DNA of 64,000 nt, taken from the sequence record OL631478.1; one strand, given 5' to 3'. Below, in pieces: positions 56,229 to 58,910 of the stretch (position 1 is its first letter; every line of letters begins with the position of its first letter). A model generated the notes under the pieces. That model was given only the letters and a program-made list of their open reading frames with translations. It was not told the DNA's origin and ran no database searches. Made by a program: the position numbers and the translations under genes. The DNA comes from Escherichia phage ECML-1.

Positions 56229-57644
56229 ATGAGCGAATTATTTAAACATGCGCACCTTCATGCAGGTCGAACTGAAAATGGTGCTGTAAACCATACTTCA
56301 TCAATGTCTGCTCTTGTAGACTTTTACAAAGCTGCTGGTTCAAGCCGTAGCAACGTAGAAATCTTACCAGACCTGTTCTACAAAGCTTTGCGTGAGGATG
56401 TTGATGTTGCATTTCGTATTTTGCTTCATATGCGAGATGTACGAGAAGGTATGGGTGAGCGTAAAGCCTTCAGAACTGTTTTACTTCAAGCGATTGAAGA
56501 CAAAGTTTTAGAGCCTACGCAGGTTCTTCGCATTATGGATAAGATTGCAGAACTTGGTCGTTTTGATGACTTCAAAATCTTCGTAGGTACTCGTTTCGAG
56601 ACAGATGCCTTCAAACATCTAGAAGCAGCATTACTAGACCCTGCAACAGCAGGTTTGGCGGCTAAGTGGTTACCACGAGTCAAACCACGTCATAAGCAGT
56701 TTGTAAAACGTTTCTGCAAGTTTGCCAACTTGAGTGAGAAAGAGTACCGCACACTGTTGTCTGCACTATCTGATACAGTTGAGCAAAAAATCTCTGCTAA
56801 TGAGTTTGGTAAGATTGACTACAGTAAGATTCCTTCACTTGCTGCTGCACGTTACCAAAAACTGTTTAACCGCAAAGATGGAGAACGCTACAAAGCTTAC
56901 ATCGAGTCCTTATCAAAGGGTGAGACTAAGATTAATGCTGGTGCTGTTTACCCATACGATGTAATTAAATCTGTTAAGCATGGTAATGCAGATGTTGCTA
57001 ATGAGCAGTGGAAAGCACTACCAAACTGGATGGCAGAGGGTGAAAACATCTTGTGTATGTCTGATGTTTCAAGCTCAATGTCTTGGGTGAATTTTGGTTC
57101 AATTACTGCTCTTGATATTGGTGTTTCACTTGCATTGTATGTAGCAGAACGTAATACAGGTTGCTTTAAGAATGAGTTGATGGTTTATTCAACAAACCCT
57201 CACTTCATCGAACTGAGTGGTGATTTACGAAACCGTCATCGTCAGGTGATGCGACACGTTGAATATGGCTCAACTAACTTACAAGCAGCTTTTGACCGTA
57301 TTCTTGAAACAGGTAAAAGAAACAACTTGACTCAGAAAGATATGCCAAGTAAGCTTATCATCTTCTCCGATATGGAGTTCAATCAGGTTGATGGAGCTAA
57401 CGGTCGTACAAACTTTGAAGCAATTCGTAGTAAGTACAAAAAAGCTGGATACGAAATGCCTCAACTGGTATTCTGGTACTTAGCAAACCGTAATGGTACT
57501 TGCGAAGTATCTGTTAAGGATAACGGTGTAGCAATGGTATCAGGGTTCTCTCCAGCCACTTTAAAAGCTCTGCTTGGTGGTGAGAAGTTTGACCCAATCA
57601 GTGTAATGCTCAAAGCAGTAATGATTGACCGTTATATCTGGTAA
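56229..57644 (+). CDS. Ro60-like protein (TROVE-like N-terminal region plus C-terminal vWA domain)
   Basis: vWA MIDAS motif DVSSSM, LIIFSDMEFN and DNGVAMVSGFSPATLKALL parallel the Ro60 vWA blocks DVSASM, FIVFTDNETF and GMLDMCGFDTGALDVI as recalled from memory; YPYDVIKSVKHGNAD parallels HPFHILIALETYKTGHG. Confidence 0.5.
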   Translation: MSELFKHAHLHAGRTENGAVNHTSSMSALVDFYKAAGSSRSNVEILPDLFYKALREDVDVAFRILLHMRDVREGMGERKAFRTVLLQAIEDKVLEPTQVLRIMDKIAELGRFDDFKIFVGTRFETDAFKHLEAALLDPATAGLAAKWLPRVKPRHKQFVKRFCKFANLSEKEYRTLLSALSDTVEQKISANEFGKIDYSKIPSLAAARYQKLFNRKDGERYKAYIESLSKGETKINAGAVYPYDVIKSVKHGNADVANEQWKALPNWMAEGENILCMSDVSSSMSWVNFGSITALDIGVSLALYVAERNTGCFKNELMVYSTNPHFIELSGDLRNRHRQVMRHVEYGSTNLQAAFDRILETGKRNNLTQKDMPSKLIIFSDMEFNQVDGANGRTNFEAIRSKYKKAGYEMPQLVFWYLANRNGTCEVSVKDNGVAMVSGFSPATLKALLGGEKFDPISVMLKAVMIDRYIW

Positions 57645-57662
57645 AAAGTTTTAAAAAGGGTA

Positions 57663-57691
57663 TTGACAATGTGTTTAATACCCTTTAATAT
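57663..57691 (+). promoter_or_regulatory. sigma70-like promoter upstream of the tRNA array
   Basis: TTGACA, 17 nt spacer, TAATAT; embedded in a 9 bp stem hairpin aagggtatt/aataccctt. Confidence 0.55.
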
Positions 57692-57753
57692 GTTCTACAT
57701 AGAAACGAAATGAGAGCTTTTCTAAGATACTGAAAAATATTTTAAAAAAGTTC

Positions 57754-57783
57754 TTGACAATCACTAAAAAATAATGTTAAAGT
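57754..57783 (+). promoter_or_regulatory. second sigma70-like promoter upstream of the tRNA array
   Basis: TTGACA, 18 nt spacer, TAAAGT. Confidence 0.4.
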
Positions 57784-57809
57784 GGTTACATAGAGTTTGA
57801 AAAGTTTAT

Positions 57810-57889
57810 CTCCGTTTAGCTCAGTTTGGTTTAGCAGCACTTGCTTTGGGAGCAAGGGGTCGAGGGTTCAAATCCTTCAACGGAGACCA
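57810..57889 (+). tRNA. tRNA-Pro(TGG)
   Basis: 7 bp acceptor ctccgtt/aacggag, anticodon arm cttgc-tttggga-gcaag, T-loop TTCAAAT, CCA encoded; 3 extra nt before the anticodon stem make an alternative CTT reading possible. Confidence 0.5.
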
Positions 57890-57896
57890 AATTAAT

Positions 57897-57974
57897 GTTC
57901 CAGTAGACAAAATGGTAAAGTCACCACTCTTTCAAAGTGGATATTTGAGGGTTCAAATCCCTTCTGGAACGCCA
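57897..57974 (+). tRNA. tRNA-Glu(TTC)
   Basis: Acceptor gttccag/ctggaac, anticodon arm ccact-ctttcaa-agtgg, CCA encoded. Confidence 0.65.
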
Positions 57975-57980
57975 GTTTTG

Positions 57981-58053
57981 ACAGAAGACCAATTACAGCA
58001 AACTTAATCTACTCATCTGAAAGTTAATCGGACAAAGAAGATATTTGGTCTGG
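57981..58053 (+). ncRNA. structured spacer element, copy 1 of the cagaAGACC/GGTCTgg hairpin family
   Basis: acagaagacca...tggtctgg; stem agacca/tggtct encloses a ~55 nt loop starting ttacagcaa. Confidence 0.45.
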
Positions 58054-58064
58054 TCATTAAGAAT

Positions 58065-58141
58065 TGCGGGTATAGAGAAAGGGCGTCTCACATGTCTCAT
58101 TAGCATGGTATCGGCAGGTTCGACTCCTGCACCCGCCTCCA
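58065..58141 (+). tRNA. tRNA-Met(CAT)
   Basis: Anticodon arm catgt-ctcatta-gcatg, T-arm gcagg-ttcgact-cctgc, CCA encoded; first acceptor pair is a T-C mismatch. Confidence 0.5.
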
Positions 58142-58146
58142 AATTT

Positions 58147-58212
58147 ACAGAAGACCGTTTACAGCAATATTTATTAAATTTTTAGCGGAAAAAATTGAAA
58201 TATACGGTCTGG
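58147..58212 (+). ncRNA. structured spacer element, copy 2
   Basis: acagaagaccgt...acggtctgg; stem agaccgt/acggtct covaries with the other copies. Confidence 0.45.
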
Positions 58213-58225
58213 TAATACTAAACAT

Positions 58226-58302
58226 GGTTAGGAAGCACATAAGGTATGTGCGGTCGCCTGTTAAGCGAATGGCACAGGGTTCGAATCCCTGACTAACCGC
58301 CA
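58226..58302 (+). tRNA. tRNA-Asn(GTT)
   Basis: D-stem gcac/gtgc, anticodon loop ctgttaa, T-arm caggg-ttcgaat-ccctg, CCA encoded; one acceptor mismatch. Confidence 0.55.
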
Positions 58303-58310
58303 AATTAAAT

Positions 58311-58398
58311 GTGTCGTTATCCCGTAGATGGTAGCGGTGGGGACTGTAAATCCCTTGTCATTGAGACTCGGTAGGTTCGACTCCTACACGGCACACCA
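58311..58398 (+). tRNA. tRNA-Tyr(GTA)
   Basis: Type II (long variable arm), anticodon loop ctgtaaa, acceptor gtgtcgt/acggcac, CCA encoded. Confidence 0.6.
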
Positions 58399-58403
58399 AT
58401 AAA

Positions 58404-58480
58404 GGCTATGTAGTTTAACTGGAGAAAATACTCCCCTGTCACGGGAGATGATGTGAGTTCAAGTCTCATCATAGCCGCCA
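58404..58480 (+). tRNA. tRNA-Asp(GTC)
   Basis: Acceptor ggctatg/catagcc, anticodon arm ctccc-ctgtcac-gggag, CCA encoded. Confidence 0.65.
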
Positions 58481-58510
58481 ATTTTGAGAGGGCTATTTAG
58501 CCCCTCCCTT

Positions 58511-58540
58511 AAAGGGTTCTTACGAGTATCCTTTAAAGGA
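58511..58540 (+). ncRNA. conserved spacer hairpin (aagg-Rttcttacgag-tcctt family), copy 1
   Basis: aaagggttcttacgagtatccttt; a related copy is at 62446..62470. Confidence 0.35.
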
Positions 58541-58617
58541 GCAGAAGACCAAATACAGCAAGAACGTATGAAAATTTCAAGCCAATTTAATTTTGAAAAA
58601 TTTAAAACTTGGTCTGG
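58541..58617 (+). ncRNA. structured spacer element, copy 3
   Basis: gcagaagaccaa...ttggtctgg; stem agaccaa/ttggtct. Confidence 0.45.
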
Positions 58618-58629
58618 CTCAACAAATTT

Positions 58630-58762
58630 ACAGAAGACCGTTTACAGCAAAACTTAAACAATCTATTTCTCGGTAAAGAAAAGGCGAAGGTTCGATTCCT
58701 TCACTCGGCAGATGTCGAGTTGGTGTAATGGTAGCACTTAAGATGATAAACAACGGTCTGGT
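58630..58762 (+). ncRNA. candidate Y-RNA-like tRNA mimic (copy 4 of hairpin family enclosing a tRNA-like module)
   Basis: Stem agaccgtt (58635-58642) pairs with aacggtct (58752-58759) and encloses a T-arm gaagg-ttcgatt-ccttc plus acceptor-3'-like cactcggca and a D-arm-like gagttggtgtaatggtagcac, with no canonical 5' acceptor strand or anticodon arm. Confidence 0.35.
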
Positions 58763-58906
58763 AATTATCTTTGTAGATAAGTTATTAAGCTTACCTGTGA
58801 GTATGCGACCACAAAGGGTGAAAGGGTAAATTCTAGATTTAAACCCAACAAGGCACATCGCTACAGACCTTAAGCAAGTCTGGGTAGCTTATCTACAAAG
58901 ATAATT
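58763..58906 (+). ncRNA. long hairpin closed by a 19 bp perfect inverted repeat
   Basis: aattatctttgtagataag (58763-58781) and cttatctacaaagataatt (58888-58906) enclose about 106 nt that contain an inner cagacc...gtctg hairpin. Confidence 0.4.
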
Positions 58907-58910
58907 TAAT

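Follow-up and report, generated by a model that had tools for sequence, protein, structure and literature searches.

Does a phage tRNA array also encode the protein and the RNAs of a ribonucleoprotein of the Ro60/Y-RNA type? Complexes of Ro60 with Y RNAs are found, conserved, in organisms ranging from bacteria to humans; what they do is still poorly understood, and the study of phage versions has only begun. The question is raised by a stretch of 64,000 nucleotides from Escherichia phage ECML-1 (sequence record OL631478.1), here called the window, in which an open reading frame (ORF) of 471 amino acids (56229..57644, plus strand) stands at the head of an array of 25 tRNA genes (57810-63556). 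In a first-pass annotation, made from the letters of the window, the product had been described as a Ro60-like protein with a C-terminal vWA domain and its RNA partners as Y-RNA-like tRNA mimics, one of which, at 58630..58762, was seen in full. The ORF and its vWA domain were found exactly as described, and the RNA segment was found to be one of four that share a short element, termed the handle, which consists of the 5' strand of a 7-8 bp helix, a single-stranded NNCAGCAA, a variable insert, the 3' strand of the helix and an unpaired G. The locus is probably best read as encoding a divergent ribonucleoprotein of the Ro60/Y-RNA type, in which a diverged Ro60-type protein would have the four adjacent RNAs as dedicated partners and these would be functional counterparts of bacterial Y RNAs.

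A 19-nt 5' signature, AGAAGACCNNNTACAGCAA, occurs in four copies without mismatch within 700 nt of the window (57983, 58149, 58543 and 58632), and none of 100 shuffled sequences reached the total of five matches that was counted at up to three mismatches. The four copies share one fold: a 4-bp helix on the outside is separated by a 3x1 internal loop (AGA/G) from a helix of 7-8 bp (AGACCNN/NNGGUCU), which is followed by single-stranded UACAGCAA; the second pair of the handle helix is nearly always G-C. Differences between the copies are compensatory in the outer helix (UGAC/GUCA, UUAC/GUAA and GAGC/GCUC) and also in the inner helix (CAA/UUG versus CGU/ACG). RNAs 1-3 have short inserts that are not tRNA-like, and RNAs 1 and 2 fill the spacers between tRNA genes exactly; the coordinates of all elements are collected in table 1. 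Within the window, no convincing handle module was found beyond these four. A fifth structured RNA follows (58766-58903), which contains a mini-hairpin, CAGAC-CUUAAGCAA-GUCUG, resembling a compressed handle, and which is present only in close Felixounavirus relatives and not in the group of 80-90% identity; whether it belongs to the handle system is uncertain. Where the first-pass annotation saw one full element and spoke of 'mimics', four handle RNAs and a fifth structured RNA are present. No Rfam 15 family matched the handle RNAs or the fifth RNA.

Two further observations concern the same segment. The invariant CAGCAA of the four handles reads as two glutamine codons, and the array encodes tRNA-Gln(CUG) and tRNA-Gln(UUG) (62205-62442); the agreement may be a coincidence. 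In phage Bas63 (MZ501086), the region of RNAs 3-5 (32749-33023) is annotated as two tiny opposite-strand 'hypothetical proteins', bas63_0137 and bas63_0138, the equivalents of which in the window are ORFs 58628..58858 (minus) and 58484..58657 (plus). ORFs of this type are probably spurious calls over RNA genes.

RNA 4 is the element that had been proposed as a Y-RNA-like mimic, and the stem (agaccgtt/aacggtct) that had been said to enclose a T arm, an acceptor-like strand and a D arm is real, fold and repeat statistics both confirming it. In the minimum free energy (MFE) fold, the closing stem is formed by AGACCGUU (58635-58642) and AACGGUCU (58752-58759), the handle comprising the 5' strand with UACAGCAA at 58635-58650 and the 3' strand with its G at 58752-58760. 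Inside this stem are a V hairpin with a 6-nt loop (58666-58681), placed where an anticodon or variable arm would be, a T arm with the loop UUCGAUU (58686-58702), an acceptor-like stem of 7 bp closed by an AGAU loop (58703-58720) and followed by a U8-like U58721, and a D arm with the loop AAUGGUA (58723-58737). YrlA has the order 5' motif, V, T, closed acceptor stem-loop and D (Chen et al. 2014, PMC4201824), and the modules within the closing stem of RNA 4 follow the same order. The 5' motif differs, the sequence GNCGAAN0-1G (as defined in PMC4201824) being absent from RNA 4, the 5' side of which carries AGACCGUU-UACAGCAA instead. The acceptor-like stem covaries among Felixounavirus relatives (ACUCGGC/GUCGAGU, ACACGUU/GGCGUGU and ACCCUUC/GAAGGGU), and in the last variant the acceptor-like 3' strand is followed by GCCA (loci L023 and L024). 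[quoted passage not shown]

The protein is matched by Pfam DUF2828 at residues 172-264 (E = 1.6e-29, 103.5 bits, cut-off 29) and by Pfam DUF7788 at residues 274-455 (E = 3.3e-43, 148 bits, cut-off 27.1) in an hmmscan against Pfam-A, and by PHROG 850, 'RNA-binding protein' (E = 2.3e-183). NCBIfam and PADLOC gave nothing relevant, and a phmmer search against PDB sequences gave no significant match. When a profile of 38 family sequences was used against the PDB, Xenopus and human Ro60 were the best vWA matches, not significant (E 0.42-1.2) and restricted to the vWA part. The profile aligns VDVSgSM, corresponding to the DVSSSM block of the window protein, with IDVSASM of both Ro60 proteins, so that the equivalence of this block proposed in the first-pass annotation agrees with the best vWA match in the PDB but is not significant alone (E 0.42); the upstream similarity to Ro60 that had also been proposed (YPYDVIKSVKHGNAD) could not be verified at sequence level. 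The MIDAS of the vWA domain is complete (D279-x-S281-x-S283, T349 and D381) and invariant in 38 homologues. Membership of TROVE at sequence level was rejected, no significant match having been obtained in Pfam, NCBIfam, PADLOC or phmmer and hmmsearch against the PDB.

An AlphaFold2 model of the protein (pLDDT 87.8, pTM 0.87) has a predicted N-terminal helical ring (about residues 28-263) and a C-terminal vWA domain with MIDAS (about residues 274-455). In a Foldseek search of the PDB with this model, the top 12 matches were all Ro60/TROVE structures (more than 500 alignment columns, E 1.5e-8 to 7.6e-6), followed by matches to vWA only. As modelled, the protein has the Ro60 fold, a helical-repeat ring and then a C-terminal vWA domain; the description as Ro60-like is carried by structure search and not by the TROVE profile. 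It is 98% identical to gp130 of Bas63, which is encoded at the equivalent genomic position, and for which a resemblance to Ro60 in structure has been reported in the PhageMaP preprint (10.1101/2024.10.10.617714). There, deletion of gp130 crippled plaque formation on a host expressing ppl, T7 was rescued on ppl by gp130 alone, either plasmid-borne or inserted in T7, and it was speculated that some of the downstream 'tRNA genes' might be Y RNAs. The protein half of the present finding, the Ro60-like fold and the anti-ppl activity, was therefore essentially known. The DUF2828 family is encoded by 709 of 50,697 phage records (about 1.4%), with carriers among phages of Escherichia, Salmonella, Mycobacterium, Vibrio, Listeria, Staphylococcus, Campylobacter, Enterococcus, Bacillus and Aeromonas and among jumbo phages; the Mycobacterium phage homologues (31-34% identity) are already annotated as 'Ro-like RNA binding protein'.

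Association of the handle with the protein was examined in 76 non-redundant DUF2828 loci (530 kb). Of the word TACAGCAA, the gene strand had 78 copies and the opposite strand 4. A 7-bp helix in fixed register, between positions -8 to -2 and a downstream 7-mer, accompanied 46 of 77 gene-strand copies (60%), compared with 6.4% when the 8-mer was shuffled, and 43 of these 46 helices were directly followed by G. In an unbiased scan for any word with a fixed-register 7-bp Watson-Crick helix and G, the top words on the gene strand were TACAGCAA (41), TTCAGCAA (20), AACAGCAA (8), TGCAGCAA (6) and CACAGCAA (5), and the opposite strand gave no comparable words. With up to one mismatch allowed, 89 modules were found on the gene strand and 2 on the other; at least one module lay within 3 kb in 51 of the 76 loci, and modules were placed upstream of the gene in 33 cases, downstream in 53 and inside the coding sequence in none. 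No other gene family was a consistent neighbour, none of them occurring in over 15 of the 76 loci. Taken as non-circular were the comparison of fixed-register pairing with shuffles, the difference between the strands and the unbiased recovery of words; the 100% pairing in alignment A2 is circular and was not counted as evidence, because its sequences had been selected for pairing. A covariance model (R1) built from trimmed handles gave 35 of 36 matches on the gene strand with default filters and included some variant motifs, but missed most long forms, and with filters off the natural inserts were not spanned and only weak partial matches were obtained. The prevalence figures were for this reason based on explicit descriptor scans.

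Modules were found in phages of Enterobacteria, Vibrio, Aeromonas, Campylobacter, Bacillus, Listeria and Mycobacterium. The layout recurs while the helix sequences are wholly different between phages, as in Mycobacterium phage LilDestine (UGGACUCC / GGAGUCCA-G), Campylobacter phage PC14 (AGGGUAUU / AAUACCCU-G), Bacillus phage MrDarsey (AAGACAC / GUGUCUU-G) and Klebsiella phage FBKp34 (AGAAGCU / AGCUUCU-G; 5' strand / 3' strand with G in each case). Further carriers include Aeromonas phage LAh_6, Cronobacter phage S13, Listeria phage A511 and many metagenomic phages.

These distributions bear on the view that the elements act as signals for the processing, punctuation or stability of tRNA-array transcripts and have nothing to do with the neighbouring protein. 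The elements of the window do sit in spacers between tRNA genes and have no promoter of their own, and the arrays of T4 and T5 also hold stable spacer RNAs of unknown function. Those RNAs (species 1 and 2 of T4, rnaC/rnaD, locus L093 15909-16172; in T5, locus L094, the annotated RNAI, RNAIII, RNA1, RNA2, RNA2H, RNAIV, RNA3 and RNAX) resemble the window RNAs in being small, structured and in some cases tRNA-like, and they are co-transcribed and co-processed with phage tRNAs, as is proposed for the window RNAs. Unlike the window RNAs, they have no CAGCAA handle: on the tRNA strand of the T4 and T5 tRNA regions examined, modules are absent, and the portions analysed carry no annotated DUF2828 gene. 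Handles are likewise absent from the rest of the window array, they also accompany DUF2828 genes with no tRNA array beside them (Mycobacterium cluster L phages and Aeromonas phage LAh_6), and they follow the gene strand by 89 to 2. An array signal of this kind is quite unlikely, and a generic spacer signal of tRNA arrays was rejected on the T4 and T5 controls and on the array-less loci with handles. The stable RNAs of T4 and T5 may be analogous spacer RNAs with other partners.

Long forms with the order T arm, closed acceptor stem and D arm were found in the window, three Mycobacterium phages, FBKp34, Cronobacter phage S13, Bacillus phage MrDarsey and three RNAs of two metagenomic phages. For the long forms (10 phage RNAs), RNAalifold gave a consensus of closing helix, T arm and D arm; 14 of its 19 pairs show double-sided changes, and nucleotides of the T-loop and D-loop are conserved among the RNAs. 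YrlA matches of 38-40 bits (E about 1e-5, below the gathering threshold of 69) were obtained for RNAs of Klebsiella phage FBKp34 and Mycobacterium phages Halena and Krypton555, and these fall mainly on the tRNA-like body. Other arrangements were found as well. The handle takes the place of the acceptor stem of a D-anticodon-T body in locus L083 (5329-5428) and is joined between the T arm and the acceptor 3' strand in locus L073 (5192-5315), and in FBKp34 (4503-4616 of locus L005) and S13 (4395-4515 and 4525-4637 of locus L007) a closed handle hairpin with NNCAGCA is inserted between the D and anticodon arms. The latter genes are over-long (113-121 nt), have normal acceptor stems and a CCA end, and are annotated as tRNA-Asp, tRNA-Ser and tRNA-OTHER; ARAGORN makes no call on them. 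Portability across these arrangements speaks for the handle as a self-contained unit of recognition.

The long forms also allow a different view of the RNAs to be weighed, in which the protein is a Ro60-fold anti-defence factor acting through protein-protein or protein-DNA contacts, for example by direct inhibition of ppl, and the RNAs are decaying or rearranged tRNA pseudogenes. Agreeing with this are the sufficiency of gp130 against ppl, the vWA/MIDAS as a classical protein-interaction module, and the results for RNA 4 with tRNA finders, ARAGORN having called no tRNA at 58481-58910 and the Rfam tRNA model (RF00005) having reached no more than 15.7 bits, for the T arm with the 3' half of the acceptor. 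Decay would not be expected to keep an invariant 6-nt motif, a covarying helix in fixed register and a permuted arm order in phages of Proteobacteria, Firmicutes and Actinobacteria, and this view is considered very unlikely. The tRNA pseudogene was rejected as an explanation of the RNAs on the arm order and the handle, both conserved and covarying across phyla.

A third view is raised by the position of some modules. Many lie in the 5' leader of the DUF2828 gene and end right at its Shine-Dalgarno sequence (for example in loci L010, L008 and L031), and in KVP40-like Vibrio phages (locus L006, and loci L027 and L028 at about 2965-3010) the single module would pair across the ribosome-binding site and AUG of the gene. 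In Vibrio phage XZ1 (2464-2508 of L006), this is a single short handle, AGACAUU-U-UACAGCAA ... AAUGUCA-G, with 6 of 7 pairs and a weak covariance model match (17 bits, E 0.75). Handles could accordingly be cis-regulatory operators or sponges, bound by the protein for autoregulation or titration, with tRNA-like inserts that have no effector role, and the action of gp130 against ppl without the RNAs is in keeping with this. The modules of the window, FBKp34, S13 and the Bacillus phage are, by contrast, downstream, in several copies and within a separately promoted tRNA array, and elaborate covarying tRNA-like bodies are hard to explain as mere operators. As a complete account of the handles, this is unlikely; the modules at Shine-Dalgarno sequences and across ribosome-binding site and AUG suggest autoregulation as an additional or alternative role.

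Phage Ro60 proteins with Y-like RNAs were already known (PMC4201824 and PMC12135203), and the locus was compared with the described systems. As in the case of Rsr with YrlA and YrlB (Salmonella and Mycobacterium; RF02553), the gene of a ring and vWA protein lies beside several small RNAs, one of which has, like YrlA, a closing stem around V, a T arm, a closed acceptor stem-loop and a D arm, while its shorter companions resemble YrlB in having no tRNA-like body. RNA 4 lies about 1 kb downstream of the Ro60-fold gene on the same strand, its neighbour being a DUF2828 protein and not a TROVE orthologue. The differences from Rsr and its RNAs are that the window protein is DUF2828/DUF7788 with no TROVE signature, that the RNA has helix, NNCAGCAA and 3' G in place of GNCGAAN0-1G and no RF02553 score, and that the RNAs are embedded in a phage tRNA array and not in an rtcBA operon. 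The Ro60 of Thermus phage phiLo (PMC12135203; PDB 9KOP and 9L5Y), which with Yrl1/2 recruits host PNPase, is a bona fide TROVE protein, unlike that of the window; Yrl1 and Yrl2 have a CGAA motif, are located upstream of the gene and are not reported as tRNA-like. Binding and the PNPase complex have been demonstrated for phiLo, whereas the window system is known from sequence and predicted structure. In the Bas63 preprint the RNAs were not identified, the actual candidates being unannotated spacers that lie partly under bas63_0137 and bas63_0138, and neither the handle nor its conservation across distant phage groups was described.

In the divergent Ro60/Y-RNA-type ribonucleoprotein favoured here, two promoters, at about 57663 and 57754, would drive the handle RNAs along with the tRNA array, and tRNA-processing enzymes would excise the handle RNAs, RNAs 1 and 2 being released as spacer RNAs. 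The handle would be the protein-binding part, held by the DUF2828 ring protein, and the variable insert the effector part, which in RNA 4, as the one such RNA per phage, is a tRNA-like body that might recruit or decoy host factors recognizing tRNA, by analogy with Ro60-Y RNA complexes. Binding of the handle by the protein is suggested by co-location, strand coherence, covariation and portability. The complex would serve RNA and tRNA homeostasis of the phage and counter-defence, and its biological role is probably one of these two. Polynucleotide kinase and/or RNA ligase genes are also present in Felixounaviruses and cluster L mycobacteriophages (PMC13148394).

Several results weigh against this reading. 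In the hmmscan of Pfam-A at E<=1, no TROVE domain was found in the 471-residue protein, DUF2828 and DUF7788 being the only matches, and for YrlA (RF02553) and Y_RNA there was no match in the window in Rfam 15 at gathering threshold, at E<=10 or in a 171-nt sub-search. Negative results in these TROVE and Y RNA/YrlA searches had been named beforehand, in the first-pass annotation, as counting against its proposal. Both parts of the proposal are supported on other grounds, the Ro60-like protein by its predicted fold and the Y-RNA-like mimic by the YrlA arm order and the sub-threshold YrlA matches of counterparts. The canonical Ro-binding motifs GGUCCGA and GNCGAAN0-1G are absent, and a third of the DUF2828 loci have no module within 3 kb under the descriptor used. 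The loci were chosen by their protein, association having been judged by strand, position and the T4 and T5 controls and not by a genome-wide presence/absence statistic. Since gp130 counters ppl unaided, the only known phenotype does not depend on the phage RNAs, which may have a different function, act as regulators of the protein or be exchangeable for host RNAs. RNA processing, RNA stability and the role of the tRNA-like body are also matters that, like protein binding, we infer.

A wider proposal is put forward tentatively, as having somewhat less than an even chance of being correct: DUF2828 proteins and CAGCAA-handle RNAs may form a second, hitherto unrecognized lineage of Ro/Y-RNA ribonucleoproteins, spread over phages of Gram-negative, Gram-positive and actinobacterial hosts, in which a portable handle, carried on tRNA scaffolds in at least four topologies (one of them an insertion into seemingly complete tRNAs with a CCA end), tethers or decoys tRNA-recognizing host factors against immunity (ppl, and possibly tRNA-targeting nucleases). 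The several ways in which tRNA bodies carry the handle suggest that linking tRNA mimicry to counter-defence is a general strategy of phages. New here are the CAGCAA handle, the identity of the four RNAs, the conservation with DUF2828 across host groups and the variety of handle-tRNA topologies; none of these was found described in Rfam or in the literature searched, coverage of which was incomplete. The locus offers a genetically tractable case of Ro60/Y-RNA biology, the orthologue having a measurable anti-ppl phenotype, and four candidate RNAs with a short handle turn the vague notion that some tRNAs may be Y RNAs into a precise, testable proposal. E. coli K-12 and Salmonella serve as hosts for Bas63 and Felix O1. 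A problem of annotation is also brought to notice, in that the handle RNAs are unannotated or covered by spurious small ORFs.

Table 1. Protein gene, RNAs and flanking features of the ECML-1 locus (positions in the window).
Feature	Position	Strand	Evidence and remarks
Sigma-70-like promoter TTGACA-18-TAAAGT, 5' of the Ro60-like gene	56160..56189	+	Consensus scan, 10/12; pattern match only
Gene of predicted Ro60-fold protein, 471 amino acids	56229..57644	+	DUF2828 and DUF7788; PHROG 850; 98% identity to Bas63 gp130
Two sigma-70-like promoters before the array of tRNAs and handle RNAs	57663-57691, 57754-57783	+	Pattern matches only
Flanking tRNA genes Pro, Glu, Met, Asn, Tyr, Asp	57810..58480	+	tRNA scans
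Handle RNA 1, short, between tRNA-Glu and tRNA-Met	57979..58056	+	UGAC/GUCA; AGA/G loop; AGACCAA/UUGGUCU; UACAGCAA 57994-58001
Handle RNA 2, short, between tRNA-Met and tRNA-Asn	58145..58215	+	UUAC/GUAA; AGACCGU/ACGGUCU; motif 58160-58167; covariance model R1 31.6 bits
Handle RNA 3, short, downstream of tRNA-Asp	58539..58619	+	GAGC/GCUC; AGACCAA/UUGGUCU; motif 58554-58561; covariance model R1 24.9 bits
Handle RNA 4, long, YrlA-like permuted tRNA mimic	58628..58764	+	MFE fold; covariation across 10 phages; motif 58643-58650
Fifth structured RNA, 21-bp closing stem	58766..58903	+	MFE -45.7 kcal/mol; z -5.8

The 2.7-kb region of the window that holds the gene and the RNAs is 96-98% identical to Felix O1-like phages (Felixounavirus: wV8, FelixO1, LMP34 and others). 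The Felix O1 orthologue of the protein (ORF42) is named 'RNA-binding protein' in RefSeq, and 'vWFA protein' or 'hypothetical' in other records. The first of the two promoter-like sites before the array overlaps a 12-bp hairpin that lies directly 3' of the stop codon of the gene.

Further along the array, two HNH homing-endonuclease-like ORFs (59438-59836 and 60429-60881) are interspersed, as in Felix O1 and T5, and their number and position vary between relatives. The first of them (59438..59836, GTG start) begins inside a tRNA-like gene (59393-59471), so that its true start is probably further downstream; this tRNA-like gene scores 31.7 bits, barely over the Rfam threshold, is missed by ARAGORN and has an equivalent in Bas63 that is annotated as tRNA-Arg(AGA). 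A strong promoter-like site at 59160 (11/12 matches) stands ahead of a non-coding stretch with structure (59290-59395, z -4.1). The region 59145-59395, which may encode another small RNA, has sub-threshold tmRNA and permuted-tmRNA matches (16-30 bits, threshold 47), and weak tmRNA-like matches far below threshold are located at 59086-59391. On the minus strand at 53017-54150, and unrelated to the handle RNAs, a protein of 377 amino acids is encoded with three tandem Ig-like repeats ('...GYQWKKDG..IP.A..ATY...AGSYTCVV...'), the Bas63 counterpart of which is annotated as an immunoglobulin-like domain protein.

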